64,000 bases of DNA from Sandaracinaceae bacterium (GTDB taxonomy: Bacteria > Myxococcota_A > Polyangia > Polyangiales > Sandaracinaceae): contig JBGCFC010000009.1 in NCBI GenBank assembly GCA_045106715.1, positions 192,001 to 256,000 of the forward strand. The letters run 5' to 3'. This document shows positions 1,866-19,391 of this stretch, piece after piece (position 1 is the stretch's first letter; every line of letters starts with the position of its first letter). The notes below the pieces were generated by a model. It did no database searches, was not told the DNA's origin, and was given only the letters and a program-made list of their open reading frames with translations. A program made the position numbers and the translations under genes.

Positions 1866-4800
1866 TCAGCGCTGCGTGAGCGCGCCCTCGAGCGGCCCGC
1901 CGCTGGACGGCAAGAGCAGCACGTGGTCCACCTCCAGCACCACCTCGGGGGGCAGTCGGAGGGAGATCGCCTCCCGCACGCGGGCGTCCACGCGCACCTC
2001 GGACCACTCCCCGTCGACCTCCGCGTCCGTGCTGAGCTCGCCATCGACGAGCAGCGAGATCGAGGACGCGTGGCCCTGGTCGACCCGGCGGATCCGGAGC
2101 CTGAGGTCGGCGCGCTCCGAGAGCGCGGCCGGCACCGCGACCGGAATGCGCACGACGTCGCCTTCGGTCCGGCATGTGGTCTGACCCAGGTAGACCCATT
2201 CGTGGTCCGGGTCGCGGGCGCGGCACCCGACAAAACCCTCGCGGGCCACATCGGGGCCGAGATCGGCGCCTCCCACCTCGGTTCCGATCGCGCCCAGCCG
2301 CACGAGAGACTCCGACGCGCTCGGCAGATCCTCCGCGACGACCAGGGTGATCAGCTGCGGAACGGTGTCGCGAGCGCCGAGCTGCCCGAACGCCCGCGCG
2401 ATCGCGTCTCGCACGCTGCTCTGCACGGAGGATTCGAGCTGCGCCTGAAGCGGAGGAAGCGCCCTCCGGTCGCCCACCCGGCCCAGCGCGATCGCGGCGC
2501 GTCGGCGGAGCCGAGGGTCGTCGAGCATCCCGATCAGCGGCGTGACCGAACGCGGGTCGCCGAGCGAGCCCAACAGGTGCACCGCGTCGCGTCGCACGCG
2601 ATGCGGGTGCCCGCCCTCGAGCGCTTCGATCAAGGTTGGCACGGCCTCGGGGTCGCCAAGCCAACCTCGTGACAGTCCCACCCTGAGCCAGCGCGGGTCG
2701 CTCTCGGGGAGCTGCGCCGTCAGGCGCTGGAGCGGGACGGCCGCGCGCGTGTCCCGCAGACGACCGAGCGCGATCGCCGCCTCGGTTGCGACCTCGGTCT
2801 CGCGGTCGTCGAGGGCCTCGGCGAGCTCCTCGGGAGGCGTCCGAGCCAGGACTCCGAGAAGCGTCGCGGCCTCGGCCCGAAGCGCAGGTTCGGCTTCGAC
2901 GTCCGCCAAGAGCGTGAGCAGAACGGGTACGGCCGAGCGGTCCGCAGCGCGGCCCTGGTGGAGCGCGACGAGGTAGGGGTCGAGACCCTCTGCCAGGCCG
3001 TCGAGCCAAGCGCGGACCTCGGCGTCGAGCTCCTCGACCACCTCGGGGGAGGCGTCGGCGAGGTTGTGCCGCTCGCGTGGATCGGCCTCGAGATCAAACA
3101 GCTCATAGGTGCCGTAGCGCACGTCGAGCACGAGCTTGTGCGGCCAGCGGACGGCCATGTGCCGCGAGCCCGCGGTGGCGAACGTCGGCCCCAGGTCCAT
3201 CTCCTGCCCGGTCAATGCGGGGCGCAGATCGTTGCCCTCCATGCTGGGGGCGGGCGGCTGGCCGACCAGACCGAGCAGCGTCGGGGTCAGGTCCACCGTG
3301 GAGACGGGCGTGGTCACCCGCCTCCCCTCGCCGTTCGGCAGGCGGATGAGCAGCGGCACGCGGATCTGCTCTTGGTACACGGTGGAGCCGTGGAAGACGC
3401 CGCCGTGGTCCCGAAACTCTTCGCCGTGGTCCGCCGTCACCGCGAGAATCACCGGCCGACTCAGGCGTGCCTCGACGCCCGCGAGCAGCCGCTCGAGCGC
3501 GCGGTCGACCGCCCGAATCTCAGAGTCGTAGCGTGCGACGTCCGACGTCCCGAGCGACGTGTCGCGGTAGGGCTCGTGCACATCGAAGTAGTGGACCCAG
3601 AACAAAGACGGCGGCTCTCCCGCGGCCGCCACGGCGTCGACCTCGGCGAGCGCTTCGTCCGTTTTGACCTCGGCGCCGCGCTCGCCGTGCGCACGGTGGC
3701 GAAACCCGAACCCGCTGTCGCGGAGCCCGCGCAGGCGCTCGCCGTCCGTGTGGAAGATGCCCTCGGTGTAGATGGCCGTGGAGTGATAGCCGACCTCGTC
3801 GAGCTCCCCCGCGAGGGTGGCGCTCGGGACGTCCAAGCCGCGCTGGGTGCGCTGCAGCACGTAGGAGGAGGTCATCAGCGAGCTGATGGAGTAGCTCGAG
3901 TGGGGGGCTGGCGCGCTCGCTTGTTCGAAGACGATCGACTCCGCGGCGAGGCGGTCGAGGGTCGGGGAGACCGCGCGCTCGCGGTAGCCGTAGAGGCCGA
4001 GATGATCGGCGCGCAGCGCGTCGATGGTGACGAGCAGGATGTGCGCTCCTTCGAACATCAGGCCCTCGGTGACCGCGGCCGACAGGCGTCGTGCGCGACT
4101 ACGTCGAAGCTGGGTCCTCCGGGCCTGCGCGATGGAGTCCGCCCGGGCTCGCGGCCCACGCGCGCGGAGGGGACCGAGCACTTGCATGACCCCGCGACTG
4201 GAAGGGGAGCGAGGAGACAGGACGGCCAGGTGGACCGTCTGGTTGTCGCCGAGGGTCATCACGTTCAGCGCCAGCGCGCCAAGCAGCCCGAGCATGGCCG
4301 GGACCGCGACCCGCCACGATCCCGTCGGGGAGGGCAGCGACCAGGCGGCGGCCAAGACGAACGCCCCCCAGGCGACGAACCCGGTGGCGGCGTGGAGGTA
4401 GGCGTAGAGCCCTGGCAGCACCATGCGATCGGCGACGAGCAGCGCGGCGCCGACGACCAGGAGCCCGAATGACGCGGGCCGACGCCGCGATGGGTCCAGC
4501 GTGGCGACGCGGCGAAGGACATGCGTTGCGCCCGCCGAGAGGAAGAGCAGCACGACCGCGACGAGCGCGACGCCCATGAACCGATAGGGAAGACGACGCG
4601 CGCTGCCACCTGTGAAGAGCAGCCACGCGATCGCGCTGAGCGGCAGCGCGAACAGCCCAACGTAGGCCCACGTAGGCGACCGGAGGCGTTCGGCGCGCGC
4701 GGCGAACACCGCGAGCGCGCCACCGGCAAGCGCGCCGATCGGGACCAGAAGAAACAGCAGCCGAACGCACAGCGCGACCCGGTGCTCCGCGACTGAGGCG

Positions 4801-4898
4801 GCGCCCATCGCGAAGTCCGAAAAGGTGATGGGCAATGCGCCGACGGCACCGGCGAGCGCTCCCCGTACTGCCTCGCTCGCTCCGCCCTGCCCGCGCAT
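1866..4898 (-). CDS. polytopic membrane protein with sulfatase-family (alkaline-phosphatase superfamily, PF00884-like) domain and C-terminal HEAT/PBS-lyase-type repeats
   Basis: Large minus ORF. The part upstream of ~4900 overlaps the nitroreductase and is R-rich, so the start is placed at an internal ATG (4898, alternative 4808). There are several TM helices. Sulfatase N-domain motifs LLVTIDALRADHLGLYGY and VTADHGEEF are present. The C-terminus has repeated AVPxLIxxLxDxxxxVRxxAxxALGxLGD units (HEAT-like). Confidence 0.6.
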   Translation of the reverse strand: MRGQGGASEAVRGALAGAVGALPITFSDFAMGAASVAEHRVALCVRLLFLLVPIGALAGGALAVFAARAERLRSPTWAYVGLFALPLSAIAWLLFTGGSARRLPYRFMGVALVAVVLLFLSAGATHVLRRVATLDPSRRRPASFGLLVVGAALLVADRMVLPGLYAYLHAATGFVAWGAFVLAAAWSLPSPTGSWRVAVPAMLGLLGALALNVMTLGDNQTVHLAVLSPRSPSSRGVMQVLGPLRARGPRARADSIAQARRTQLRRSRARRLSAAVTEGLMFEGAHILLVTIDALRADHLGLYGYRERAVSPTLDRLAAESIVFEQASAPAPHSSYSISSLMTSSYVLQRTQRGLDVPSATLAGELDEVGYHSTAIYTEGIFHTDGERLRGLRDSGFGFRHRAHGERGAEVKTDEALAEVDAVAAAGEPPSLFWVHYFDVHEPYRDTSLGTSDVARYDSEIRAVDRALERLLAGVEARLSRPVILAVTADHGEEFRDHGGVFHGSTVYQEQIRVPLLIRLPNGEGRRVTTPVSTVDLTPTLLGLVGQPPAPSMEGNDLRPALTGQEMDLGPTFATAGSRHMAVRWPHKLVLDVRYGTYELFDLEADPRERHNLADASPEVVEELDAEVRAWLDGLAEGLDPYLVALHQGRAADRSAVPVLLTLLADVEAEPALRAEAATLLGVLARTPPEELAEALDDRETEVATEAAIALGRLRDTRAAVPLQRLTAQLPESDPRWLRVGLSRGWLGDPEAVPTLIEALEGGHPHRVRRDAVHLLGSLGDPRSVTPLIGMLDDPRLRRRAAIALGRVGDRRALPPLQAQLESSVQSSVRDAIARAFGQLGARDTVPQLITLVVAEDLPSASESLVRLGAIGTEVGGADLGPDVAREGFVGCRARDPDHEWVYLGQTTCRTEGDVVRIPVAVPAALSERADLRLRIRRVDQGHASSISLLVDGELSTDAEVDGEWSEVRVDARVREAISLRLPPEVVLEVDHVLLLPSSGGPLEGALTQR

Positions 4899-5003
4899 CC
4901 GCGGCAAGAATGCCCGGAGGCGGCGAGAATGCAACGGGAGCGTGAGGCGACCCGTGACGTCGGCCTCCCGAGGCCCCGCTGGCGTGCCGGCGCGGTCGCG
5001 AGC

Positions 5004-5678
5004 ATGGTCCGCGTCATGGACGTCGAGCAGGCGCTGCAGGAGCGGCGGAGTGTGCGCGGGTTTCTCCCCGAGCCGGTGAAGGCCGAGGTGTTGGAGCGCG
5101 TCTTCGCGCAGGCCCAGCGCGCGCCCAGCTGGTGCAACATCCAGCCGTGGCGGGTGTGGGTGGCGTCGGGCGCCACGCGGGACCGTCTGGTGGCCTCGTA
5201 CATCGAGGCGGCGAAGTCGGGGATGCCGGAGCCGGAGCTCGCGTGGCCGGGCGCGTACCCCGAGCCCTACGGGGCCCACCGCAAGGCATGCGGGATCGCG
5301 CTCTACGGGGCGATGGGCGTGACGCGCGAAGACAAGGCGGGGAGGTACGCGGCGTGGATGCGGAACTACGAGGCGTTCGACGCGCCGCACGTCGCGATCG
5401 TCGGCTTCGATACCCGCATCGGCATCTACGCGGGGCTCGACGTGGGGTGCTGGCTTCAGTCGCTCCTCCTCGCCGCCTGGAGCGAGGGCATCGCCAGCTG
5501 CGCCATGGCGAGCCTCGCCGCCTACCCCGGTCCGGCGCGCGCGGTGCTGAACATCCCCGAAGACGTGAGCCTCGCGTTCGGGTTGGCGCTCGGCTTCGAA
5601 GACACGAGCGTCGCCGCCAACGCCTGCCGAACCGAGCGCGCGCCCCTCGGCGACAACGTCACCTTCGTCTCCGAGTGA
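5004..5678 (+). CDS. nitroreductase family protein (NfsB/NfnB-like, FMN-dependent)
   Basis: Motifs RRSVRGF, CNIQPWRVWV and a C-terminal GxxxGF pattern. Start chosen at internal Met (MVRVMD); the upstream part of the ORF is R-rich. Confidence 0.8.
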   Translation: MVRVMDVEQALQERRSVRGFLPEPVKAEVLERVFAQAQRAPSWCNIQPWRVWVASGATRDRLVASYIEAAKSGMPEPELAWPGAYPEPYGAHRKACGIALYGAMGVTREDKAGRYAAWMRNYEAFDAPHVAIVGFDTRIGIYAGLDVGCWLQSLLLAAWSEGIASCAMASLAAYPGPARAVLNIPEDVSLAFGLALGFEDTSVAANACRTERAPLGDNVTFVSE

Positions 5679-5713
5679 CGGTCGCGGGTTCCACGCCCTT
5701 GTGACCCGGGCCC

Positions 5714-7663
5714 GTGGCATGCTGCGAGGGCGTGGTTTCCTCCGGTCAGCAGCTTGGCTCGTACGAGGTCGTGGCGCGCCTCGGTCGGGGCGGCATGGCG
5801 TCGCTCTTTCTCGGAAGGCGCTCGGGCCCGGCGGACTTCAGTCGATTCGTCGCCCTTAAAGTCGTGCACGAGGAGCTCGCCCACGACGTCAAGCTCATCG
5901 AAATGCTCCTGGATGAGGCGCGCATGGCCGTGCACGTCCAGCACCCCAACGTCGTGCGGGTGGAGGAACTCGGCGAGGCGGACGGCCGGCCCTACCTCGT
6001 CATGGAGTACGTGGACGGGGTGACCTTGTCCGCCGTGCTCGCGGGCTTGGTTCAGCGCCGGGAGCTGTTGCCGGTCGCGACCGCCGTTCACCTCGCCGCT
6101 GAGGTCGCGGCGGGGTTGCACGCGGCGCACGACGCGACCGACGAGCGCGGCCGTCCGCTCGGCATGGTGCATCGGGACGTCAGCCCCCAAAACGTGATGA
6201 TCAGCGCCCACGGGCACGTGAAGGTCATCGACTTTGGCGTCGCCAAGGCGAAGGGCCGGCTGACGCAGACCGCGCACGGGGCCATCAAGGGCAAGCTCGC
6301 GTACATGGCGCCGGAGCAGGTGGGCGGCGAGCCGGTGGACCGCCGCACGGACGTCTTTGCGCTCGGCATCCTGCTTTGGGAGATGCTGACCCGCCGTCGC
6401 CTGTTCTTCTCCCGCGACAGCGCCAAGACGATCGCGTGGATCCGTGAGGCGCAGGTCATCCCGCCGCGCGAGCACCGGCCGGAGATCCCGCCGGAGCTGG
6501 AGACGATCGTGATGCGCGCGCTCTCTCGAAACCCGGAGGACCGCTACGCCACCGCCGCCGGCATGAGACGCGCTCTGATGACCAGCGCCGCATTTGCGTC
6601 CATCGAGCCGGCCGAGCTCGCGTCCATGGTGCGCGTCGCTGCGCGAGACCAGCTCAAGCAGGCCCGGCCCACGATGTCGCCGTCCCTGATGGAGAAGACG
6701 CTCGTCTCGCATCCAGACCGGCCGCTCCCGCTATCGGTGGACGCCCTCGTGCAGGCGATCCGCGAAGGTCTCACCAACCAGGACGAGGCGACGTTCGGCG
6801 CGGTGGATGTGCTCTTGTTCGCGTTTGGAAGGCCGGACGCGGTCGAGGCGGTGCTGGGCGCGGAGCGAGGTCGCATCGCCGACGGAGTCCGTGCGCGGAT
6901 CGCCGCCCACCGGGGCGACTTGTCCGAAGAGCTGAGGCTGCGCGAGTCCGTCCGCGGACTCATGCGCGAAGACGAGCAGGCCGACGCGCAGCACTACGCC
7001 CACGCGACGCTCGACTGCGCATCCGTCTTGGTGAAGCTCGGTGCGTATGCCCGGGCGGAGCAGCAGCTGCGCAAGGCGCTCGGAGGAGGGCTGCGGGCCA
7101 CGCCACGAACCGCGGAGGCGTGGCTGTTGCTCGCCCGCACCCGGGTCGGTCAGGGACGGTTTGGACAAGCCGAGGATGACTTCGAGAGGGCGGCCGACGA
7201 GGCCGAACGAAGCGGCGTCGGCGAAGTGGTCCTGCACGTCGCGGTGGCGCGCGCCGCGTCGGCGTTCCTCTCCGGGCGGCGCGTTCTGGCGCGCGCAGAA
7301 GCGGAGCGAGCGCAGGATCTGGCCCGGCTCGCCGACCACACCGTGTGGCGGGTGCGCGCGTTCATCGAAGTCTCGCGTGCGTCGCTGGCGACGCGCGATA
7401 CGAAGGCCGCCGTCAAGGCCGCCCAAGAGGTGGAGCGGCTGGGTCGCCGTCAGGGGTTGAAGCTCGACACGCCGGAGATCGCGCCGGTCTTGGCGCTGGC
7501 GGCGGAGCTCGACGGCCGCCGTGACGACGCGGAGGTGATGCGTCGCTCTGCACGCGCGGCGCTGCTCGAGCGGGCCGCGAAGATCTCGGATCCCGAGTGG
7601 CGCGCCCGCTTCCTTGCGGACATCCCGGCGCATGCCGAGCTGATGCGCGACACGCACCCCTGA
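5714..7663 (+). CDS. Ser/Thr protein kinase (Hanks-type) with C-terminal TPR-like/helical domain
   Basis: Gly-rich loop LGRGGMASLF, VALK, HRDVSPQN, DFG, APE. GTG start. Long Ala/Arg-rich helical C-terminus. Confidence 0.85.
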   Translation: MACCEGVVSSGQQLGSYEVVARLGRGGMASLFLGRRSGPADFSRFVALKVVHEELAHDVKLIEMLLDEARMAVHVQHPNVVRVEELGEADGRPYLVMEYVDGVTLSAVLAGLVQRRELLPVATAVHLAAEVAAGLHAAHDATDERGRPLGMVHRDVSPQNVMISAHGHVKVIDFGVAKAKGRLTQTAHGAIKGKLAYMAPEQVGGEPVDRRTDVFALGILLWEMLTRRRLFFSRDSAKTIAWIREAQVIPPREHRPEIPPELETIVMRALSRNPEDRYATAAGMRRALMTSAAFASIEPAELASMVRVAARDQLKQARPTMSPSLMEKTLVSHPDRPLPLSVDALVQAIREGLTNQDEATFGAVDVLLFAFGRPDAVEAVLGAERGRIADGVRARIAAHRGDLSEELRLRESVRGLMREDEQADAQHYAHATLDCASVLVKLGAYARAEQQLRKALGGGLRATPRTAEAWLLLARTRVGQGRFGQAEDDFERAADEAERSGVGEVVLHVAVARAASAFLSGRRVLARAEAERAQDLARLADHTVWRVRAFIEVSRASLATRDTKAAVKAAQEVERLGRRQGLKLDTPEIAPVLALAAELDGRRDDAEVMRRSARAALLERAAKISDPEWRARFLADIPAHAELMRDTHP

Positions 7664-7736
7664 GGGCAGACGGGCGTGGTTCCCGATACGGCGTCACGAT
7701 GAGGCAACTTTGCGATCACGCGACGGTCGCACCGCC

Positions 7737-8543
7737 ATGCGGCGGTGCTGGTGGTTCATGATGGCCTCGACGTGTCTGGCGTGCGCGCCCACCCGTCTGC
7801 CGGTCGTCTCGGCCCGCCAGCCGGCCGCTGTGGCGCCCTCCACGCTTGCGGCCCCCTCGGTGCCAGCGGCCTTCTCTGCTCCGGGCGCCTTCGCTCGGGA
7901 GCTCCACCTCCAGTGCCGTGCCTTCGACGCGTCCTGCTCGAGCAGCGTCGGCATGCTGGCCCGCGCGGCGGAACCCGAGGCGCAGCGCTGCACGGTTTCG
8001 CTCATCGCCCCCGACCGGGTCATCACCGCCAGCCATTGTCTGCGCCCCGAGGAGCGGGTCGCGGGAGCGTCGTGCACCGGAGAATGGGTCGCCTTTCCTG
8101 GCGAAGGCGGCGCGCCGATGGAGTGGGTGGCGTGCGCCGAGGTAGAGCGCGCCAACGCCGTCGATGAGACCAGCGTGATGCGAAACGACGTCGCCGTGTT
8201 GCGGTTGGCGCGTGCGGTGGTGCGGCCCGTGTTGGAGGTCGACCCGAGGCCACCGGAGGAGGGCAGCGTCGTGACCGTGGTCGCCGTGCAACCGCACCCG
8301 ATCTACGGGAGCCAGCACGAGATCGAGGGCCGACGCTGCCGGGTGGCCACACAACAGAGTGCCTCGGAGGTGTTCGGCGACGCGGCGCGCGCGGTCGGCT
8401 GGCTGATGGACTGCCCCTCGCAGCCGGGCAACTCGGGCTCTCCGGTGCTCGACGCACGGGGACGCATCCGTGCGCTCATGCACGGCGGCTCGGCCCCGCT
8501 TCACGGCGTGGGGGTCACGTCCGGCCTTGGTCTCCTTCGCTGA
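7737..8543 (+). CDS. secreted trypsin-like serine peptidase (S1 family), lipobox signal
   Basis: Signal MRRCWWFMMASTCLAC. Catalytic His motif ITASHC, Asp region NDVAVLRL, Ser motif GNSGSPV. Confidence 0.7.
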   Translation: MRRCWWFMMASTCLACAPTRLPVVSARQPAAVAPSTLAAPSVPAAFSAPGAFARELHLQCRAFDASCSSSVGMLARAAEPEAQRCTVSLIAPDRVITASHCLRPEERVAGASCTGEWVAFPGEGGAPMEWVACAEVERANAVDETSVMRNDVAVLRLARAVVRPVLEVDPRPPEEGSVVTVVAVQPHPIYGSQHEIEGRRCRVATQQSASEVFGDAARAVGWLMDCPSQPGNSGSPVLDARGRIRALMHGGSAPLHGVGVTSGLGLLR

Positions 8544-9137: not shown

Positions 9138-10892
9138 TCAGAACCACGCGTCCTCCATGTCCAAGTACGACCGCTCCGCGCTCTCGCATCGGGCGACCAA
9201 CGGCGCCACGCGCGGGAGCTCGGTGGCGAACCAGTAGCGGGCGCCTTGCCGAAGGCCCCGCGCGAGATCCGAGTCTGGCGCGTTCCTCTGCGCGGCATTG
9301 TCCAGCTTCACGTGCATCCAGCCCACGACCAGCACGGAGAACAGCTCGAGGAAGTCGGCGCTGTGGCCGAGCATGCCCTCGAGGTCGCCGGTGAGTCCGC
9401 GTTGGCCGAGCGTCGCGACGAGCGCGCCGACGCGGTTGAGGGCGTCGGTCAGCGCTTCGGCTTCCATCTCGAGATCGAAGGCCGCGAGGTCCGCGGTGAC
9501 CGCCTGCGCCAGGCCCATCCACGCCGCGCCGCCTTTGGCGACGACCTTGCGCCCCAGCAGATCCAGGCTCTGGATGCCCGTCGTGCCCTCATGGATGCTG
9601 TTGAGCTTCTGGTCCCGCATCCACGCTTCGGGCCGGTACTCGCTGGAGTAGCCGTAGCCGCCGTGGATCTGCACGGACAGCACGTTGGACTCGAACCCGT
9701 GCTCCGCGGGGAAGCTCTTCGTCACGGGCGTGAGCAAGTCCAGCATGAGCTGCGCCGCGTGGTCGCCCCCCCCGGCGAGGTCCGCGTAGCGAGCGGTGAC
9801 CGCGGCGAGGCACAGGCTACCGTCGACGATGGCCTTCTGACGGAGGAGCATGCGCCGTACGTCGGGGTGGGAGATCAGCGAGACGGGTGGGCTGTCGGTG
9901 TCGCGCACGCCAAGAGGCCGCCCTTGGGTGCGTTCCCGCGCGTACGCGAGCGACTCGTGGTAGGCGACGGAGGCGGTGGCGATGGCATTGACGCCGACCA
10001 TCAGCCGGGCCTCGTTCATCATCTGAAACATGCAGCGCAGCCCGCGGTGCGGCTCGCCGACGAGCCAGCCCACGCAGTCGCCCTCGCTGCCGAACGCGAG
10101 GGCCAGGCTCGGGAGCGCACGCCAGCCGATCTTGTGGATCATGCCGCTGACCGCAACGTCGTTGTCGACCAGTCCGTCGTCGGTCGGGCGCCGCTTCGGC
10201 ACCGCGAACAGGCTGATCCCGCGTGTGCCGGCGGGGGCGCCTTCGATGCGTGCGAGCACCAGATGCACGATGTTCTCCGCCGCGTCGTGGTCTCCCCCGC
10301 TGATGAAGATCTTCGCGCCGTCGATCCGGTAGGTGCCGTCGTCGTGCGGGGTCGCTTTGGTGGTCAGGTCGCCGAGGCTGCTGCCCGCCTGCGGCTCGGT
10401 CAACGCCATCGTTCCCGTCCAGCGGCCGTCGTACATCGGCTCCATGAAGAGACGTTTCACCCTCTCATCACCGAAGGCCTCGATGAGGTGCGCCGCCCCC
10501 GCCGTGAGCCCGAGCACACCCGTCGCGGACAGGTTCCCGGCCATCAGGTAGGCGTGGGCCAACGACGCGACCGTATGCGGGAGCTGGGCGCCCCCGACCG
10601 CCTCAGGGCGCGTGGCGGAGACGATGCCGAGCTCCGTGAGCTGGGCGATCGCGCGCTTCATCTCGGGATGCAGCAGGACCCGGCCGTCCTCGAACGTCGG
10701 GCCTTCGCGGTCGGTGATGCTGTAGGTGGGCAGCAGCACTTCACGGGCGACGCGTCGGCACGCGCCGAGATAGAGGTCGAACGTCTCACGGGTGTGCTCC
10801 GCGTATCGCGGCAGCGAGAGCAGCCCGTCGACGTCGACGACATGCGAGAGGAGGAGGTCGACCACACGGTCGTCGATCAGCGGATTCGACAC
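9138..10892 (-). CDS. acyl-CoA dehydrogenase (long AidB/FadE-like type)
   Basis: ACAD N, middle and C domains, e.g. TEPQAGSSLGD, GxKIFISGGDHD, QIHGGYGY. Confidence 0.9.
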   Translation of the reverse strand: MSNPLIDDRVVDLLLSHVVDVDGLLSLPRYAEHTRETFDLYLGACRRVAREVLLPTYSITDREGPTFEDGRVLLHPEMKRAIAQLTELGIVSATRPEAVGGAQLPHTVASLAHAYLMAGNLSATGVLGLTAGAAHLIEAFGDERVKRLFMEPMYDGRWTGTMALTEPQAGSSLGDLTTKATPHDDGTYRIDGAKIFISGGDHDAAENIVHLVLARIEGAPAGTRGISLFAVPKRRPTDDGLVDNDVAVSGMIHKIGWRALPSLALAFGSEGDCVGWLVGEPHRGLRCMFQMMNEARLMVGVNAIATASVAYHESLAYARERTQGRPLGVRDTDSPPVSLISHPDVRRMLLRQKAIVDGSLCLAAVTARYADLAGGGDHAAQLMLDLLTPVTKSFPAEHGFESNVLSVQIHGGYGYSSEYRPEAWMRDQKLNSIHEGTTGIQSLDLLGRKVVAKGGAAWMGLAQAVTADLAAFDLEMEAEALTDALNRVGALVATLGQRGLTGDLEGMLGHSADFLELFSVLVVGWMHVKLDNAAQRNAPDSDLARGLRQGARYWFATELPRVAPLVARCESAERSYLDMEDAWF

Positions 10893-10976
10893 GCGCGCAC
10901 CTTACTAAAACGAGATTCTCACCGCGACCGTCGTGCGAGCCGTTTCACCCAGCCGCCGGTTTGCTACGCTTGGCCA

Positions 10977-11432
10977 ATGCGCTTGTCTTCCTGCTCTTCG
11001 TGTGACGCCTTCCTCCCTCCGACCGCTTCGGCCTGTCCGCACTGTGCTCACGTTGCGGCGATCCAGAAGCCAGCAAAGAAGGCGGCTCGCCCGCTGCGTG
11101 GCCTCATGGCGATCGGCGCCGGTGGCCTGCTCTCGATGACGCTGTCGGCGTGTTACGGCGCAGTTGTGGATCCGTCGTTCGACTCCGGGCCGTTCCCGGA
11201 GATCGACGCCGGCAACGACTCTGGCCTGGTGATCGACTCAGGCGGCCCCACCCCCACGGACTCAGGCGTGGAAGACGCGGGCTCGGAAGACGCGGGGGCC
11301 GACAGCGGTGCCGCGGACGGCGGTGCGGAGACGGATGGCGGCGCGGAGGCGGACGGCGGCGCGGACGGCGGCGCTGAAGCGGACGGCGGCGCTGAAGCGG
11401 ACGGCGGCACCGGCGACGATGCTGGCGCGTGA
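10977..11432 (+). CDS. small zinc-ribbon / membrane-anchor protein with C-terminal Gly/Asp/Ala-rich hexapeptide repeats (candidate rSAM substrate)
   Basis: ATG at 10977, in frame with the long ORF 8775-11432 whose upstream part is antisense to the ACAD. N-terminus is CSSC...CPHC, followed by a hydrophobic segment with LSAC, then (D/A)GGAE(A/T)DGG repeats. The stop overlaps the GTG start of the rSAM gene (GTGA). Confidence 0.55.
   Translation: MRLSSCSSCDAFLPPTASACPHCAHVAAIQKPAKKAARPLRGLMAIGAGGLLSMTLSACYGAVVDPSFDSGPFPEIDAGNDSGLVIDSGGPTPTDSGVEDAGSEDAGADSGAADGGAETDGGAEADGGADGGAEADGGAEADGGTGDDAGA
11320..11420 (+). repeat. imperfect 18-bp tandem repeats (gcggacggcggcgctgaa) encoding AEADGG units
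   Basis: Direct reading of the sequence shows about 4-5 units. Confidence 0.6.
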
Positions 11433-12709
11433 CGCAGGCATCTGAGGATCGGGAGCGCGGCGGACGCCGTCGCCTTCCGGTGCTCGCAGGCAACCTCCAC
11501 CCCCGCTACGTCGTTTGGGAGCTCACGCTCCTGTGCGACCACGCGTGCACGCACTGCGGTTCACGCGCCGGGGTGGCGCGTGAACACGAGCTGTCGACGA
11601 GGGAGGCGCTCGCAGTCGTCGAGGAACTCGCCGCGCTCGGCGCCGGCGAGGTGGTGCTCATCGGCGGTGAGGCGTACCTGCACCCGGGCTTCCTGGAGGT
11701 GGTGTCCGCGCTGCGCGAGGCGTCCATCACGCCGGTGATGACCACTGGCGGCCGCGGGGTCGACGCTGCGCTGGCGCGCCGGATGGCCGAAGCGGGCATG
11801 CAGCGCGTGGGGGTGAGTGTCGACGGGCTCCGCGAGACCCACGACCAGATGCGCGCCCGGAAGGGCTCCTTCGACGACGCGCTTCGTTGCATCGAGGTCT
11901 GCCGAGAGGCCGGCCTGAAGGTGACCGCCAACACCAACCTCAACCGCCTCAACGAGGCGGACTTCGAAGCGCTCTACGAGGTGTTGCGCGACGCGGGCGC
12001 ACGGGGCTGGCAGGTCCAGCTGACGGCGCCGCTCGGGCGCGCGGCGGACCGCCCCGAGATGCTGCTTCAGCCCTACGACCTGCCCGCGTTGTTTCCGCGC
12101 ATCGCGGCGATCAAGCAGCGTGGCTTGCGCGAGGGGATGCTGTTGATGCCGGGAAACAACCTCGGCTACTTTGGTCCCGAGGAGGGCCTCCTGCGGTCTC
12201 AGCGCCCGAGCCACAACGACCACTTCGGCGGCTGCCAGGCGGGTCGCTACGTGATGGGCATCGAGAGCGACGGCGCCGTGAAGGGCTGTCCCTCCCTCCA
12301 GACCAAGAGCTATGTCGGTGGAAACGTCGCGGACGGTCTGGCCGCGGTTTGGAACGACGCGCCCAAGCTCGCCTTCGCGCGCGAGCGCACCGTCGAGGAC
12401 CTTTGGGGGTTCTGCCGAGAGTGCCCCTACGCGAGCACGTGTCTCGGCGGGTGCACGTTTACGGCGCACAGCTTCTTCGGGCGCCCGGGCAACCAACCCT
12501 ACTGCCACTACCGCGCGCTCGAGCACGGCCGCCGGGGGCTAAGAGAGAGGCTCGTGCCCAAGGACGCCGCCGACGGGCAGCCGTTCGACCACGGCCTGTT
12601 CGACATCGTCGTTGAGCCGGCGGGCGCCCCTGAGCCGGCCCGCCCCGAACGGCACACGCTGGTTCAACTGACGCGCCCTCACACGAGGCGCGGCGCGCCG
12701 CCTTCGTGA
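11429..12709 (+). CDS. radical SAM / SPASM-domain protein (peptide-modifying maturase class)
   Basis: Radical SAM cluster motif CDHACTHC (Cx3Cx2C). C-terminal SPASM cysteines GGCQAG...GCPS...CRECPYASTCLGGC (Cx2Cx5Cx3C). Confidence 0.85.
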   Translation: MTQASEDRERGGRRRLPVLAGNLHPRYVVWELTLLCDHACTHCGSRAGVAREHELSTREALAVVEELAALGAGEVVLIGGEAYLHPGFLEVVSALREASITPVMTTGGRGVDAALARRMAEAGMQRVGVSVDGLRETHDQMRARKGSFDDALRCIEVCREAGLKVTANTNLNRLNEADFEALYEVLRDAGARGWQVQLTAPLGRAADRPEMLLQPYDLPALFPRIAAIKQRGLREGMLLMPGNNLGYFGPEEGLLRSQRPSHNDHFGGCQAGRYVMGIESDGAVKGCPSLQTKSYVGGNVADGLAAVWNDAPKLAFARERTVEDLWGFCRECPYASTCLGGCTFTAHSFFGRPGNQPYCHYRALEHGRRGLRERLVPKDAADGQPFDHGLFDIVVEPAGAPEPARPERHTLVQLTRPHTRRGAPPS

Positions 12710-12759
12710 GTTCGATGTCCGCTTGAAATGTCTCTGGGTCTGGCGCAGTCCATCAGCAC

Positions 12760-15468
12760 GTGTCCGTCCCGCTTTCGCTGCGCATCCCCAATCCTCCGGC
12801 CGATTTTGTCGGCCGTGACGACCTCCTGGCGCGGGTTTCGAGCGCGCTCCGGGACGGACCGGCGGTGGTGTTGGTGGGGCAGGGGGGGATCGGAAAGACC
12901 GCGCTCGCGCTCTCCGCGGCGAAGACGCTCCCGCCCGGAGGACTCTTCGTGCGCCTCCCAGAGGGGACGCCGGAGCCCTTCGGTCCGCTCCTTCGCGCGC
13001 TCTCCGAGGTGAGCGGCCAGCCTGGCGGGCAAGGCCTCGCGGGGGTGGCGCATCCGGATGAGAAGTTGGCCCGTGCGATCGATCTCGCCGACGCCCTGGT
13101 GCCGCTCTTGGTGGTCGACGATGCGCACGCGTCTGGCGTTCCGGCGCTCTCCCATCTCGTGAACGGCGTCATCGACTACGCGCAGCGCGCCCGCTGGCTG
13201 TTCACCAGCCGAGAGGAACTCCCTCAACTGTCGCCTACGCGCCAGCTGACGGTGGACCGCCTCCCCTCCGAGTCTCTCTCGGACCTGGCTGCGCGCTGGG
13301 CCCCGGAGCTCGAGTCCGCCGAGCGTGCCCGCGCGCTGCGCCGGGCGGAGGGCTCGCCGTTCCGCTTGATGTCCGTGCTGCGCGGCGAGCTCCCGGACCG
13401 CGCCGAAGACCCGGCGGTCGAGGAGGGGCGGCAGCTCTTGGCGTTGCTGCGCCGGCCCGTTCGGGCCGACCAGATCGGTCTCCTCCCCCGCGTGTGGGAG
13501 GCCTTGGAGGAGCGTGGCTTGCTCGTCCGGCGCGGCCCACGGGTCTCGATGCACGATGCCGCGCGACCCCGACATCGGGACTTGGATCTGCTCCGCTCGG
13601 ATGTGGTCTCCCACCTGCTGGAGCGGATCGGAGGCGACCCCGACGCGACGCTCGAGCAGATCCGCCTCCGGCTTCTCCGTGACGAGCCCCACGAGGCCGC
13701 CGCCTGTCTCGAGGCGGAGGGCCCGCGCCTGATCGAAGAGGGTTTCACCCCGGAGCTCGCGACACTCGTGCCGCCCGACGCGGACGGGCCCCTGCAGGGC
13801 TGGGGACTGCGCATCGCAGCCGAGCACGGCGAGGACCTGCACCGGCTCTCGGCGCCGGGGGCGGGCGCCGACTTGGCCACCGAGGCGGCTTGGCTGGAGG
13901 TCCGCTATACGCTCGAAGACCGCGCACCGACGGTCGCCCTTGCAGACGCGGTCGCAGCTCGGGGACGCGCTGAAGGCGCGCTCGAGGTGGCCTGCCGGGC
14001 GGATCTGATCGGCGCGTCGACCGCCATGATGCTCGGCGACTTCGACCGGGCCACCACGATTCTCGCGGCCGCCCGCCCGGTGACACCCGCGCACAGCCTC
14101 CAGGTCACCGCGGTCGAAGCGATGATCGCCGCGCTGCATGGAGACGCCGCCGGAGCCGAGGCGCGCCTGCGCCGGGTCGAGGCCCGGATCGACGAGACGG
14201 CGGGCAACGACCGCGGCTCGCTGCTCTACAACCTCGCGCTTGTGTTTCACATGCTCAAGCGACCGCTGGACGCGGCCCGTCTGCTCGAGCGCGCCATCCC
14301 CGACGACGAGCTCACGACGACGGCGGTGCTCGGGCGCCGCATGCTCGAAATGGACGCCCATCTCGCGGTGCTGGCGGGCAACCTTCCACGCGCCGAGCGG
14401 CGCTTGAAGCGGATGAAGCGCTTCGTGCCGCCGGGCCTACCGACCGATGGACGCGCCACGCTCGTGGCGGCGCACCTCGATCTTCTGAAAGGACGGCTTC
14501 CGCGCGCGAAGCGGCAGCTCGAGCGGGCGCTGGCGGTGGCGGAGGGCTACGGCGGCGTGGAGGACCTCGCGTTTGGGCGGGCCATGCTCGCGCAGCTGTG
14601 TTGGCGAGAAGACCGCCCGCCCGATCCCCTCCCAAAGAGCGCGGGGGTCTCGGCCGCGATCGCCGCTGGCTGGAACGCGTTGGCCGTGCTTTCGCATGAG
14701 GGGAGCGGCCGGATGCCCGACGGTGTGGCGTCCGACGAGCGTGCGGACATCGCGCGCCTGCACAGCGCGATCGAGGCCTGGCTGACCGAGGGCAAAGCCG
14801 CCCGAGCACACGGGTTGCCCGGTCTCGTCGAGCGCGAGACCGCGGCGCCCCATGCTCTGGTTTGGGCGGCTTGGGCGGCGGAAGTACGTATCGCCGCGGG
14901 GGGCGCGTTCGCGGTCGATGGTGCGCTCGCGCTCGCCCGTTCCATGGGCGCGTCCGAGTTCGAGAGCGCGCTCGAGACGCTCGCCCTCGTCGAGGCCGAA
15001 GACGTGGCGGCCGTGATCGCCCACGCGCGGTCCGGGGTGAGCCTCGCTCGCTCCCTGGTGGGCGGCGGCGCCTCCGGCCAGCTGCGGGCCTCGCTGCTCG
15101 CCCGGCTGCGCGCGCACCTCGGCTGGGGTGCCGCGGTCGGCGCTCTCGACCCCAGCGGGCTCGTCGTCGACGAGGGGCGTGGTCGGGTCTACGCGGCCGG
15201 CGGTGAGGTGAGGTTCCGGAGCGGAGCCAAGCCGCTCTCGTTGCTCGGTGCGCTCGCGGCGACCCCAAAGGGCGCCAGCAAAGAGGCGCTCAACCAACGT
15301 GTCTGGGGCACGGAGGAATACCACCCGCTCCGCCACGACAACCGTCTGCGGGTCGCCGCCCGCAAGCTCCGTAAGCGCGTCGAGCCGCTGCTCGAGAGCC
15401 CGCTGCTCGACACGCTCGAGGACGGCTACGTGCTGACGCGGCCTGTCCGGTGGCTCTCGCCCCGCTGA
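12760..15468 (+). CDS. STAND-class P-loop NTPase regulator with C-terminal OmpR/PhoB-type winged-helix DNA-binding domain
   Basis: Walker A GQGGIGKT and hhhhDD Walker B (LLVVDDAH). Long helical/TPR-like middle. C-terminus LNQRVWGTEEY...DNRLRVAARKLRKRV resembles trans_reg_C. Confidence 0.7.
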   Translation: MSVPLSLRIPNPPADFVGRDDLLARVSSALRDGPAVVLVGQGGIGKTALALSAAKTLPPGGLFVRLPEGTPEPFGPLLRALSEVSGQPGGQGLAGVAHPDEKLARAIDLADALVPLLVVDDAHASGVPALSHLVNGVIDYAQRARWLFTSREELPQLSPTRQLTVDRLPSESLSDLAARWAPELESAERARALRRAEGSPFRLMSVLRGELPDRAEDPAVEEGRQLLALLRRPVRADQIGLLPRVWEALEERGLLVRRGPRVSMHDAARPRHRDLDLLRSDVVSHLLERIGGDPDATLEQIRLRLLRDEPHEAAACLEAEGPRLIEEGFTPELATLVPPDADGPLQGWGLRIAAEHGEDLHRLSAPGAGADLATEAAWLEVRYTLEDRAPTVALADAVAARGRAEGALEVACRADLIGASTAMMLGDFDRATTILAAARPVTPAHSLQVTAVEAMIAALHGDAAGAEARLRRVEARIDETAGNDRGSLLYNLALVFHMLKRPLDAARLLERAIPDDELTTTAVLGRRMLEMDAHLAVLAGNLPRAERRLKRMKRFVPPGLPTDGRATLVAAHLDLLKGRLPRAKRQLERALAVAEGYGGVEDLAFGRAMLAQLCWREDRPPDPLPKSAGVSAAIAAGWNALAVLSHEGSGRMPDGVASDERADIARLHSAIEAWLTEGKAARAHGLPGLVERETAAPHALVWAAWAAEVRIAAGGAFAVDGALALARSMGASEFESALETLALVEAEDVAAVIAHARSGVSLARSLVGGGASGQLRASLLARLRAHLGWGAAVGALDPSGLVVDEGRGRVYAAGGEVRFRSGAKPLSLLGALAATPKGASKEALNQRVWGTEEYHPLRHDNRLRVAARKLRKRVEPLLESPLLDTLEDGYVLTRPVRWLSPR

Positions 15469-15472
15469 CTCC

Positions 15473-17419
15473 TCACGCCGAAGTGCGGAACGGGCCGGTG
15501 GGCGTGTGCGACGGGCGCTTGGGCTTGCGCGGGTTCTTGCCGAAGCTCGTCGAGATCACCGCGCCGAGACCGGCGAGTGCTGCGCCCGTGACCAACACGG
15601 AGCCGACGAACGGGATGAGACCGACCAAGAACAGCACACCGACACCGACCGCCAGCTGCGCCACGGGTCGCTCCTTGAGACCGGGCAGCGGGAGGACTGT
15701 GCCAAGCCAGTAGGCGCCTGTCCCCCAACCCAGCACATAGCCGCTCGCCAGCAACGCGCCGATCACCATCGCGCCGGGGATGCCGATGATCGTCAGCGTG
15801 AACACGAGCGCGAGGGCGCCGCCGCCCAAGGCTCCGAACAGACCGCCGAACGTGCTCCGCACCGGCCGCGCCGCGAGCTCGTCCCGCAGCGTGGAGAAGC
15901 GGTCGCGGCCCGCGCCGAGCATCAGAAGACCGAACAGGAACAGCAGCGCGTTCCACAGCGCCCAGCGATAGACGCCCGATTCCTCGCCGTCACGGTGGCC
16001 GACATGAACATCCCCAGTGTGGCCGGTGCCCACGATCTGGCCGTACAGCACGGCCGATTCGTGCACTTCGATGCTGCCGCCCATCGCGTTGAGGTCGCCG
16101 TGCACCCGCGCGGCGGGGCCGAGCTCGATGTCGCCGCCCATCGTCGTCACGTTGCCGACCACCTCGCCGTCGACCGAGGCGTCGCCGCCCATCGTGACGA
16201 TGTCGCCGTACGCGTGACCGAGCACCTGCGCATCTCCGCCCATCGTGTAGACGCCGCGCACCCGCTGCTCGCGCCCGACGTCGGCATCATCGCCGAGCGT
16301 GACGAGGTCGTTGAACACGTTGTTCTGCGCGCTCGCCAAGGCCGGCGGCGGGGTCGGGGGCATCGGTGGGATCGGCGGGGGGGCCGGGGCCCACGGGATG
16401 GCGTCAGTCGCGGGCGCGCGCGGCGAGGCCCGGACAGGGGCGCTGGACGGATCCCACGGGATGGTCCGAATCGCGGGCGCTCGCGGCGGAAAGCGGACAG
16501 GGGCGGTCAGGGTCTCCGGCGTCACTGCGTCGGTCGGGGGCTCTTCCGGGACGGTGTCGTCCGCCTGCCCCTGCGACACCGGGTCGGGGCGAATGGTGAG
16601 CAGCGACGCGCCGGGGCGCACCACGACATCGCGCTCGCCCAGCAGCGCCTCGATCACCTCGTCGATGGGCGCGCCAGACAGGTGCATCGTCACCGGTGTG
16701 TCGTCTTCGAGCTCCATCACGACGCCGAGCCCCGCCGAGGCGGCCGCCTGACGCAGCGCCTCGGACGTGGGCTGACGCTCAACCGCGATCTCCACCTGGG
16801 GCATCGGATCGGGCCAGCTTCCGTCGACGCGGTAGGCCTGCGAGACGTTGGGGAGCGCGACGACCATCAACAGCAGCGCTCCCGCCGCACCGGTGACGAG
16901 CGAGCCGCTGCCGTGGCGCAGCAGGAGCCGCGTCGGCACGGCCAAGACCAAGGACGCGATGAGGCCGAGGATGGCCAGCCCGATCCAGCCGCCCGGCAGG
17001 CTCGACTCCACGATGCGGTCGGCGGCACGCGCGAGGGTCAGCACCTGGCTGCCGGCCGTGCCCAGCCCGGAGACCCCCAGCCCGGGGGCGCTCATCACCG
17101 CGAGGCCGGCCGCGAGCAGACCGCCGATCCCCGCGCCCATCCAGAGGCTCCGTCGGCTCGGTGCGGCCGTCGCGAGCGCCGCTTCCGCCGGGGCCAGCTC
17201 CATCGCCCGGGCGATCATCTGGTCGAGATCGTCGATCGGCGGCATGGCCCGCTTGAGCCCGAGCACCGCGTCGGCGGCGCTCTCCACCTCTTCCGCCACC
17301 CGCGCCGCGCAGACCGCGCAGCTGTCCAAATGACCCAGCTGGGCCTCGCTGACGAGCTCCTCTCGCCCGGTGGCGAGCGCCTCCAGCGCCACGACGTCGA
17401 GATGCGGCATCTCGGTCAT
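15473..17419 (-). CDS. zinc-dependent anti-sigma factor (HxxxCxxC) with TM segments, Pro-rich linker and bactofilin-like (polymer-forming) repeat domain
   Basis: The ATG overlaps the sigma stop (ATGA). N-terminus HLDSCAVCAARV. Repeats TMGGDAQVLGHAYGDIVTMGGDASVDGEVVGNVTTMGGDIEL... Multiple TM helices at the C-terminus. Confidence 0.7.
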   Translation of the reverse strand: MTEMPHLDVVALEALATGREELVSEAQLGHLDSCAVCAARVAEEVESAADAVLGLKRAMPPIDDLDQMIARAMELAPAEAALATAAPSRRSLWMGAGIGGLLAAGLAVMSAPGLGVSGLGTAGSQVLTLARAADRIVESSLPGGWIGLAILGLIASLVLAVPTRLLLRHGSGSLVTGAAGALLLMVVALPNVSQAYRVDGSWPDPMPQVEIAVERQPTSEALRQAAASAGLGVVMELEDDTPVTMHLSGAPIDEVIEALLGERDVVVRPGASLLTIRPDPVSQGQADDTVPEEPPTDAVTPETLTAPVRFPPRAPAIRTIPWDPSSAPVRASPRAPATDAIPWAPAPPPIPPMPPTPPPALASAQNNVFNDLVTLGDDADVGREQRVRGVYTMGGDAQVLGHAYGDIVTMGGDASVDGEVVGNVTTMGGDIELGPAARVHGDLNAMGGSIEVHESAVLYGQIVGTGHTGDVHVGHRDGEESGVYRWALWNALLFLFGLLMLGAGRDRFSTLRDELAARPVRSTFGGLFGALGGGALALVFTLTIIGIPGAMVIGALLASGYVLGWGTGAYWLGTVLPLPGLKERPVAQLAVGVGVLFLVGLIPFVGSVLVTGAALAGLGAVISTSFGKNPRKPKRPSHTPTGPFRTSA

Positions 17420-18054
17420 GCCGAGGCCTCGCTGAGCGCCTTGCGCAGGCGCTTCCGCCCCCGATGGAGCCACGTCATCACGGTACCCATGGGCACCTCG
17501 AGAGTGCTCGCGATCTCCTCGTACGTCGAGCCATGCACGTGATAGAGCACGACCGCGAGGCGCATTTTCTCCGGCAAGGTCTCCAGCGCGGCGGACAGAC
17601 GCTCCGTTTCGATGCGCGCAAGGGCGACCCGCTCGGGGGTGGGCGCGTCGCTCGGGACCCACTCGGTCGCCTCGTCGCCGTCGCTGCTGAAGGTGCGTCG
17701 CTCCAGCCCGCGGCGACGCAGGCGGTCGCGGCAGAGATTGCGGGTGACCGTGAGCGCCCAGGTCTTGAAGCTGCCCTTGTCCGGGTCGAATTTGCGGATG
17801 GACGTGACGATCCGCTCCAGCGACTCCTGGGTGGCGTCGTGGGCGTCGTCCCGCCCGGCGACATACCGGCAGACGTCGTGGATGGCGCGCGCGTGCTCCC
17901 GGAGCAACGCCTCGAGGGCGTTCCGGTCACCGTCGCTCGCTCGCTGTTCCAGTGACGCCTCGATGCCGATCCTCCGCTCGACCTGGGCCGTGCCGGCGAC
18001 GGAGTATGCCGGTCCGAGCGGCAGAGAGAGGGAACGAATGAGAGGCATCAGCAT
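17416..18054 (-). CDS. ECF (group IV) sigma-70 factor
   Basis: Sigma-70 region 2 (FKTWALTVTRNLCRDRLRRR) and region 4 (LAVVLYHVHGSTYEEIASTLEVPMGTVMTWLHRGRKRLR). Confidence 0.85.
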   Translation of the reverse strand: MLMPLIRSLSLPLGPAYSVAGTAQVERRIGIEASLEQRASDGDRNALEALLREHARAIHDVCRYVAGRDDAHDATQESLERIVTSIRKFDPDKGSFKTWALTVTRNLCRDRLRRRGLERRTFSSDGDEATEWVPSDAPTPERVALARIETERLSAALETLPEKMRLAVVLYHVHGSTYEEIASTLEVPMGTVMTWLHRGRKRLRKALSEASA

Positions 18055-18084
18055 GCGCGGAGGTCCTTACGGGGCCTCGGGGGC

Positions 18085-19245: not shown

Positions 19246-19391
19246 CCCCTGAGCCCTAGCACGCACCGCTCCCCAGAGGGTTTCCGGGTGGGATACTCTC
19301 CCCGCGGCAGACAAGCGCCAAGGTGCGGGCGCCTGACGAGGTCGTAGCGGGCGCGCGGGGATCGCGCCGCGCAGACGGACGGGGAACTCGG

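Follow-up and report, generated by a model that had tools for sequence, protein, structure and literature searches.

A radical SAM/SPASM enzyme and a small zinc-ribbon, lipoprotein-like protein form a conserved pair in Myxococcota: a candidate third clade of tyramine spliceases

What does a radical S-adenosylmethionine (SAM)/SPASM enzyme act on when the gene that overlaps its own encodes a small zinc-ribbon protein with a Gly/Asp-rich tail? This question is raised by two genes of a Sandaracinaceae bacterium (assembly GCA_045106715.1, contig JBGCFC010000009.1, positions 192,001 to 256,000). We call this whole stretch of 64,000 nucleotides, with a G+C content of about 70%, the window. The enzyme is currently annotated as 'radical SAM protein' and the small protein, called the partner below, as 'hypothetical protein'. 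An initial annotation, made from the DNA alone, regarded the two as a candidate peptide-modification system, possibly of the GRRM type. Our best reading, based on sequence comparisons, is that the enzyme represents a third, unnamed clade of tyramine spliceases and would act on a lipoprotein-like substrate. We consider it very probable that the two proteins are an enzyme and its substrate of some kind. With less assurance, but still on the favourable side, we suggest that this enzyme excises tyramine at a Cys-Tyr-Gly (CYG) motif of the partner.

We analyzed the partner gene and its DNA (all features of the locus are listed in Table 1). Translation of the 151-amino-acid open reading frame (MRLSSCSSCDAFLPPTASACPHCAHVAAIQKPAKKAARPLRGLMAIGAGGLLSMTLSACYGAVVDPS...ADGGAETDGGAEADGGADGGAEADGGAEADGGTGDDAGA) gave a protein as described in the initial annotation, with a ribbon (C6-x2-C9...C20-x2-C23), one hydrophobic segment and a Gly/Asp-rich repeat tail. 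The repeats exist at the DNA level. Tandem Repeats Finder recovered the 18-bp period reported before (5.6 copies, 72% match) together with periods 30 (2 copies, 90%) and 48 (2 copies, 85%), and these repeats encode the last third of the acidic tail. The TGA of the small frame does overlap the GTG of the enzyme gene. This GTG is the first start codon in its frame, and the next one would remove the conserved RRRL. Third-position G+C of the small frame was highest in the proposed frame (0.78 vs 0.73 and 0.64), a signal weaker than in the neighbouring genes (0.86-0.91). Support from G+C is moderate, and it is the conservation of the protein in many genomes that is decisive; therefore we regard the small open reading frame as a real gene. 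A database search with the whole 151-amino-acid sequence returned a single relative, 56% identical, and did not return the sequence itself, while the neighbouring enzyme is on record at NCBI. This suggests, but does not prove, that gene calling in the source assembly missed the small frame. A consensus scan of 10600-13000 found no sigma-70-type consensus.

The two genes stay together in other genomes. In a collection with one genome per species we identified, by clade-specific peptide patterns, 447 stretches encoding a relative of the enzyme, and 80 loci were fetched. The partner was counted by a motif scan of both strands in 82 loci. A zinc-ribbon...ACYG protein adjoined the enzyme gene in 70 of them; it was co-directional and upstream in 45 loci, divergent and upstream in 24 and downstream in 1. 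When the 12 negative loci were rescanned with a profile, the partner was found in 5 more, 2 of them cut by contig ends, which brings the total to approximately 75 of 82. A 4-nucleotide overlap ([A/G/T]TGA, with an in-frame start) was present in 21 of 42 co-directional pairs. The pair occurs in both Polyangia and Myxococcia (Sandaracinaceae, Nannocystaceae including Plesiocystis pacifica, Polyangiaceae, Kofleriaceae, Archangium, Vitiosangium and other Myxococcota). These results uphold the earlier proposal of a conserved pair of the peptide- or protein-modifying radical SAM/SPASM type. No third gene was conserved beside the pair in the loci examined, hence the pair has no Y protein, the PqqD-like activator of some splicing systems. 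The STAND-type regulator, which had been noted downstream of the enzyme gene, was absent beside the pair in the other loci examined, and we do not count it as part of the system. In the window this downstream gene (12760-15468) matches AAA_16, AAA_22, TPR_12 and Trans_reg_C, all under the Pfam cutoffs, and it is not syntenic elsewhere.

Some loci showed peculiarities of their own. A low-GC, Lys/Asn-rich pair, outside the Myxococcota-labelled assemblies, lies in an assembly labelled Spirochaetota (GCA_039028475.1, L088 6001-7499; also P0283); it consists of a 96-amino-acid partner with TLMACYG and then a radical SAM/SPASM gene of 393 amino acids. Plesiocystis pacifica SIR-1 has a second radical SAM/SPASM gene (417 amino acids, L002 1604-2857, minus strand) about 3 kb from the pair, beside a TfoX_N gene. 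In Archangium species the next gene after that of the enzyme is for a Peptidase_M19 (membrane dipeptidase; L087 4777-6534, minus strand; L082 5292-6503, plus strand), which might be a lineage-specific processing enzyme.

We asked which part of the partner is conserved. Searches with the whole protein are limited by its low-complexity tail and by word indexing, and the partner profile was built from the N-terminal 60-70 residues. The conserved part covers the first ~61 residues, namely the ribbon, a basic linker, a hydrophobic stretch and T-L-(M/S)-A-C-Y-G. In two separate alignments (36 and 46 sequences) the four ribbon Cys, T55, A58, C59, Y60 and G61 were invariant and L56 nearly so. Past Gly61 the divergence is complete. 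With a word-indexed profile search we obtained 497 relatives, every one unnamed or named 'hypothetical protein', and among the matches listed the C-Y-G motif was present in 120 of 120. An index-free search of 1.84 billion representatives gave 1071 relatives at E <= 1e-3 and 408 at E <= 1e-10, and every short protein in the best 150 matches carries ACYG. No NCBIfam model matched the small protein at E <= 0.01, and its sole Pfam match was a weak zinc-ribbon hit (zf-ChsH2). The invariant motif at the end of the hydrophobic segment had been overlooked in the first reading of this DNA, and it is its X-Y-G core that links the pair to tyramine-splicing enzymes.

The index-free search also returned long matches. 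These are unrelated proteins of 734-2283 amino acids with 7-12 zinc-ribbon copies that match the ribbon of the partner profile (P0241, P0243, P0244, P0245, P0264, P0270, P0271, P0273, P0280, P0319, P0323, P0333, P0335, P0341).

The divergence past Gly61 bears on the first proposal, that of a GRRM-like system whose enzyme would target the Gly/Asp-rich tail repeats. The window copy does carry ADGGAE(A/T)DGG repeats, and several orthologues also have D/G/A/S/T-rich tails. However, the tail is conserved neither in sequence, nor in length (16-92 residues among 120 members), nor in type. Orthologues end in a MopE-type metal-binding motif (PF11617), a beta-rich domain, Myxococcus-type Cys-rich repeats, or Pro-rich or D/G/A/S/T-rich low complexity, and in some lineages the MopE-type motif is found on a small upstream gene. 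Members with repeat-free tails of 16-20 residues still pair with the enzyme. There was no GRRM model among the 25 best NCBIfam families of the enzyme (the last of them at 53.6 bits), nor any NCBIfam match for the partner. We therefore find a GRRM-like system very hard to credit. Since the tails differ among orthologues, we interpret the Gly/Asp repeats as a lineage-specific tail, which would not be the target.

We then compared the enzyme with known families. The window enzyme has an identical counterpart in a Sandaracinaceae metagenome-assembled genome. C36, C40, C43 and the seven SPASM Cys are invariant in 24 orthologues, and Pfam recognized both Radical_SAM and SPASM, so the Cx3Cx2C motif and the full SPASM cysteine array were read correctly from the DNA. 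The best NCBIfam match, a full-length alignment, was TIGR04103, nif11-class peptide radical SAM maturase 3 (447.9 bits, cutoff 725). The second was TIGR03913, GDL motif peptide-associated radical SAM/SPASM maturase (394.7 bits, cutoff 591.75), and the next best, TIGR04545, heme b synthase, reached 141 bits (cutoff 500). All 24 orthologues matched only TIGR04103 and TIGR03913 at E < 1e-50. Neither protein of the pair reaches any NCBIfam cutoff. Annotated members of the two families were recovered by tblastn against plasmids. The window enzyme shared 47% identity with a Nostoc protein to which NCBI gives a name from TIGR04103 and 46% with a Burkholderia protein whose name comes from TIGR03913; identity between these two was 47%. 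Because the distance to each of the named-family members is about the distance between those two, we place the myxobacterial enzymes in a third clade.

The AlphaFold2 model of the enzyme (predicted local distance difference test score, pLDDT, 79; predicted template modelling score, pTM, 0.82) was closest to the structures of SkfB, PqqE, SuiB, BlsE and anSME, and no closer solved structure was found. Separate models of both proteins give the expected folds and have no bearing on the reaction. The presence of anSME among the structural neighbours, together with a Pfam Sulfatase domain in a protein encoded ~5 kb away (1866-5720, minus strand), could mean that the enzyme is an anSME serving that protein. 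The sulfatase domain, however, has no C/S-x-P/A-x-R motif at its start, no anSME family is found in the best NCBIfam matches of the enzyme, and conservation of a sulfatase gene next to that of the enzyme was not seen in other loci. We give this explanation practically no weight. The family matches of the enzyme did not point to anSME-type or other non-peptide radical SAM enzymes, which had been named beforehand as a finding that would speak against a peptide-modification system.

Comparison with both sister families points to tyramine splicing. PlpX-type radical SAM/SPASM enzymes, called spliceases, cut a tyramine equivalent (C8H9NO, 135.06 Da) out of XYG motifs (PMC11414181, PMC11626197, PMC9811515). 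PlpX belongs to a SPASM subclass that had been uncharacterised before and accompanies Nif11/NHLP precursors (PMC11002830), and a survey of PlpX-like enzymes recorded YG-rich neighbours in 189 genera and confirmed 27 pairs (PMC10849128). In the Nostoc locus a Nif11 precursor ending ...SIALYGLPPELF (also ...GGRGSIALYGLPPELF), with the motif LYG, is followed by the enzyme and then by a 71-amino-acid protein. This layout matches the published type I PlpA/PlpX/PlpY systems. The Burkholderia enzyme is preceded by DUF1842/DUF1843 proteins with MYG or PYG in the segments ...AAMYGVAIQSAAASGDL..., ...MPMYGVGLQEARASGDL... and ...VTPYGVAIHQAIADGDL... We observed that X-Tyr-Gly is the only feature common to the Nostoc, Burkholderia and myxobacterial partners.

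Three Myxococcaceae loci have variant partners, with ...LSNCGSQMALYGVPC or ...ASSCGPALMAAYGVPPC (L056 3490-3942, L081 3667-3966, L069 2597-2932). Their X residue is Leu or Ala, which known substrates also have, YG is retained, and a lipobox-like Cys lies 6-7 residues upstream. Since the variants change X yet keep YG, we consider YG the constant element. In most members the functions of the X residue and of the lipobox Cys coincide in one Cys.

These variants also help to weigh a different chemistry, in which the enzyme modifies the conserved motif (by a Cys59 thioether, a Cys-Tyr or Tyr carbon-carbon crosslink, or Cys oxidation) with no excision of tyramine. It would agree with the invariance of Cys59 in nearly all members and with scores of the enzyme that stay under the cutoffs of the two splicease-type families. 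Cys or Tyr is the target of many SPASM enzymes, and SkfB, PqqE, SuiB and anSME are among the closest solved structures. On the other hand, the variants swap Cys for Leu or Ala while Tyr-Gly stays, the partners of three related enzyme clades have only X-Y-G in common, and the lipobox-like context independently explains why Cys is invariant. Such chemistry thus seems rather unlikely to us, and excision of tyramine at CYG is the reaction we favour.

The zinc ribbon gives a further link between the clades. The TIGR03913-type enzymes of Burkholderia and Aureibacter (two examined) carry a zinc ribbon at their own C-terminus. In the Burkholderia enzyme, encoded on the Burkholderia pseudomallei plasmid NZ_CP076300.1, this ribbon is KLKMCRNCDGYVHAGEQTCPHCGGD (L091 3494-3568). 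The partner-ribbon profile (consensus kLrsCsaCdGFvPsgaaaCPhCg) matched it with 24.1 bits and a conditional E of 3.6e-9; the argument is limited, as this match spans no more than 25 residues and zinc ribbons are common. The Aureibacter enzyme (gene L092 2974-4398) gave a weaker match. In the AlphaFold2 model of the partner, residues 1-20 have a mean pLDDT of ~83 and form two short strands. Judged by sequence, one clade carries this kind of ribbon module on the enzyme and another carries it on the putative substrate. In published systems the activator of the splicease is located in the substrate leader, in a separate Y protein or in the enzyme; the activating element, be it a Y protein or a leader helix, is functional as a fusion to either the substrate or the enzyme C-terminus, and binary spliceotide systems without a Y protein are known (PMC11414181). 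The similar ribbon on TIGR03913-type enzymes and these fusion experiments are suggestive, without being proof, of a role of the ribbon as a docking or activating element of the enzyme.

A ribbon that can be fused to the enzyme itself can be an accessory module, and the partner might accordingly be a membrane-anchored tether or regulator, with the enzyme acting on another molecule. The tight linkage of the pair, with no other gene conserved alongside, would fit this as well. It leaves unexplained, however, the invariant A-C-Y-G and the retention of YG when the Cys moves. Adjacent XYG proteins are the expected substrates in both sister clades (PMC11414181, PMC11626197), and no alternative substrate gene is conserved nearby. 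We regard a role as mere tether or regulator as improbable and continue with the partner as the substrate.

Where in the cell would such a substrate be found? Among 120 members, the net charge of the linker had a median of +3 (range 0 to +6), the uncharged stretch before the Cys had a median of 17 residues (range 13 to 23), and the net charge of the tail had a median of -6 (range -24 to +5). The partner shows the sequence features of a lipoprotein signal: a positive n-region, a short hydrophobic h-region and a lipobox L-[ASM]-[GA]-C. AlphaFold2 predicted a helix at residues 42-59, and orthologue tails carry domains typical of secreted myxobacterial proteins. The pattern looks like a lipoprotein signal peptide behind an unusual zinc-ribbon extension. 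Since the linker, the stretch and L-S-A-C resemble such a signal peptide, the partner is probably exported and possibly lipidated and cleaved at Cys59. The enzyme has no signal peptide, therefore the modification would have to precede export. There is a precedent for this order, as anSME modifies exported sulfatases before export.

We propose the following sequence of events. The GTGA overlap observed in the window would let both proteins be made together, presumably by translational coupling. The enzyme would act in the cytoplasm on the new small protein prior to its export, with the N-terminal zinc ribbon docking on the enzyme or activating it. The radical SAM reaction would then remove the tyramine equivalent from Tyr60 of Cys59-Tyr60-Gly61, as homology and the shared motif suggest. 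The modified protein would leave via the Sec pathway and possibly be processed as a lipoprotein at the same Cys. The outcome would be a ketoamide located at the membrane-anchored N-terminus or beside it, and the variable acidic tail would lie beyond the cell membrane. Ketoamides are warheads of inhibitors of serine and cysteine proteases (PMC11414181, PMC11626197, PMC9811515), and for this reason our guess for the product is a membrane-tethered protease inhibitor or other electrophilic trap. The complete picture is tentative, and we see it as possible at most: the splice site would be the +1 Cys of a lipoprotein signal peptide, the ribbon in the discarded signal region would serve as the leader, and a clade-wide two-gene module would yield a membrane-tethered electrophile such as a protease inhibitor or covalent trap.

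Several points weigh against excision of tyramine at CYG. The reaction is deduced from ~47% identity and a three-residue motif. The enzyme lies below the cutoffs of both named families; it thus belongs to a sister clade, and its reaction might not be the same. The splicease literature consulted did not document Cys in the X position, and a near-universal Cys is also compatible with formation of a thioether or another reaction at Cys. The conserved motif is short, and its single YG could have a structural role. If the partner entered the membrane co-translationally, the motif would be put at the periplasmic face, away from the cytoplasmic enzyme; the model needs modification before export, as the motif would be inaccessible after membrane entry. 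Finally, that TIGR04103 is the PlpX family is our assumption, which we take from the InterPro number given in a review and the layout of the Nostoc locus.

If the proposal is true, the pair would exemplify a lipoprotein with a spliced backbone that serves a physiological role in a large part of a phylum, and would not be a sporadic natural-product cluster. Tyramine splicing is among the few known routes to beta-amino acids and ketoamides in ribosomal products, and it has been studied mainly in peptides resembling those made on the ribosome and modified after translation (RiPPs). A pair kept in hundreds of Myxococcota species, with a substrate resembling an exported lipoprotein and the putative splice site at the lipobox Cys, would suggest that this chemistry has a conserved physiological use, with a membrane protein as its target. 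In nature, the zinc ribbon would be the counterpart of the engineered leader-enzyme fusions in the literature, and it is a candidate recognition or activation element. A family definition would also improve the annotation of many genomes. A splicease with an XYG substrate is already known as a kind of system. What differs from the splicease literature consulted is the ribbon and the lipoprotein-type signal on the substrate, the Cys that is at once X and the lipobox Cys, the bare two-gene module across many Myxococcota, and the ribbon on the substrate rather than on the enzyme. Our literature searches found no paper on the pair or the clade; the splicease survey of Scott et al. 2022, which was outside the search, has about an even chance of listing the clade.

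Table 1. Coordinates of the enzyme gene, the partner gene and adjoining features in the window.
Feature	Position	Strand	Basis or remark
Radical SAM/SPASM enzyme gene, 426 amino acids, proposed third-clade tyramine splicease	11429-12709	+	family scores; orthologues 60-76% identical
C36-x3-C40-x2-C43, radical SAM [4Fe-4S] motif	11534-11557	+	invariant columns, Pfam
SPASM region with seven auxiliary-cluster Cys (C269, C287, C329, C332, C338, C342, C359)	12233-12505	+	Pfam, invariant columns
Partner gene (proposed substrate), 151 amino acids	10977-11432	+	translation, codon-position G+C, orthologues adjoining the radical SAM gene
Zinc ribbon, residues 6-23, C-x2-C-x10-C-x2-C, predicted cytoplasmic	10992-11045	+	invariant Cys, weak Pfam zf-ChsH2
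Basic linker, residues 24-41, net charge +5	11046-11099	+	resembles signal-peptide n-region
Uncharged hydrophobic stretch, residues 42-58 (GLMAIGAGGLLSMTLSA), ending L-S-A before Cys59	11100-11150	+	
Cys59-Tyr60-Gly61, invariant X-Y-G, proposed splice site; Cys59 is the lipobox-like +1 Cys	11151-11159	+	
Acidic lineage-specific tail, residues 62-151, net charge -24, predicted extracytoplasmic	11160-11429	+	
Imperfect tandem DNA repeats coding ADGGAE(A/T)DGG	11312-11408	+	Tandem Repeats Finder
GTGA overlap of partner stop and enzyme start	11429-11432	+	sequence
Divergent intergenic region, 84 bp, presumed promoter	10893-10976	.	inferred; flanked by 9138-10892 (-) and the partner gene
Acyl-CoA dehydrogenase gene	9138-10892	-	divergent from the partner gene

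Other genes of the window are described here for orientation. The gene at 1866-5720 (minus strand) encodes a 1284-amino-acid protein with Pfam Sulfatase and HEAT repeats and no C/S-x-P-x-R at the domain start; this protein may belong elsewhere in the alkaline-phosphatase superfamily. Upstream of the pair, at a distance of a few kb, a Ser/Thr protein kinase gene with TPR repeats (5714-7663, plus strand) is followed by one for a trypsin-like peptidase (7710-8543, plus strand). On the minus strand, an extracytoplasmic function (ECF)-type sigma factor gene (17416-18066, Sigma70_r2/r4) is followed by a gene for a 729-amino-acid protein without Pfam match (15473-17662). Close to its likely start this protein contains a Cys-x2-Cys segment; it also has hydrophobic segments, a Pro-rich region and repeated 'MGGD', and is probably an anti-sigma factor. 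Further on, at 19323-24128 and 24125-28267 (both plus strand), there are adjacent overlapping genes for giant paralogues (1601 and 1380 amino acids) with FecR, VIT and TPR, the first also with TonB_C.

We finally compared the pair with known systems. anSME is likewise a radical SAM/SPASM enzyme and a structural neighbour of the enzyme model, and it modifies a short motif in a protein destined for export. It differs in its motif, C/S-x-P-x-R, and in its formylglycine chemistry, and it is absent from the best sequence families of the enzyme. TIGR04133, 'rSAM_w_lipo', also comprises radical SAM/SPASM enzymes, which pair with a small lipoprotein according to the TIGRFAMs description, but the match of our enzyme was weak (136 bits vs cutoff 425).

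The binary (type II) systems RhaX/RhaA and RcsX/RcsA of Rheinheimera, compared by description only, resemble the pair in having two genes and no Y protein. In RhaA the activating element is a leader alpha-helix, whereas the myxobacterial partner has a zinc ribbon, and the helix before its proposed splice site is a signal-peptide-like hydrophobic stretch. The TIGR03913 systems (Burkholderia, Azospirillum, Ralstonia, Aureibacter) share with the pair the second-best family, the 46% identity, a very similar zinc ribbon within the system, and X-Y-G in partners, namely in Burkholderia DUF1842/DUF1843 and in 1 of 3 Aureibacter copies. They are unlike it in that the myxobacterial enzyme is below the 591.75-bit cutoff, that their ribbon is on the enzyme C-terminus and not on the substrate N-terminus, and that the myxobacterial partner has no GDL motif after CYG, does not match DUF1842/DUF1843 and is predicted to be exported.

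The type I spliceotides (PlpX/PlpY/PlpA, PcpXYA; TIGR04103) are alike in the radical SAM/SPASM enzyme, which is the best NCBIfam match with 47% identity to the Nostoc member, in the substrate gene directly upstream, and in an X-Y-G flanked by small or hydrophobic residues with Pro following. The myxobacterial enzyme is under the 725-bit cutoff, and the pair has neither the Y protein, needed only in type I, nor a Nif11/NHLP leader. Its putative substrate begins instead with a zinc ribbon and a signal-peptide-like segment and has Cys as X. The myxobacterial pair is found in many Myxococcota, outside multi-gene natural-product clusters.

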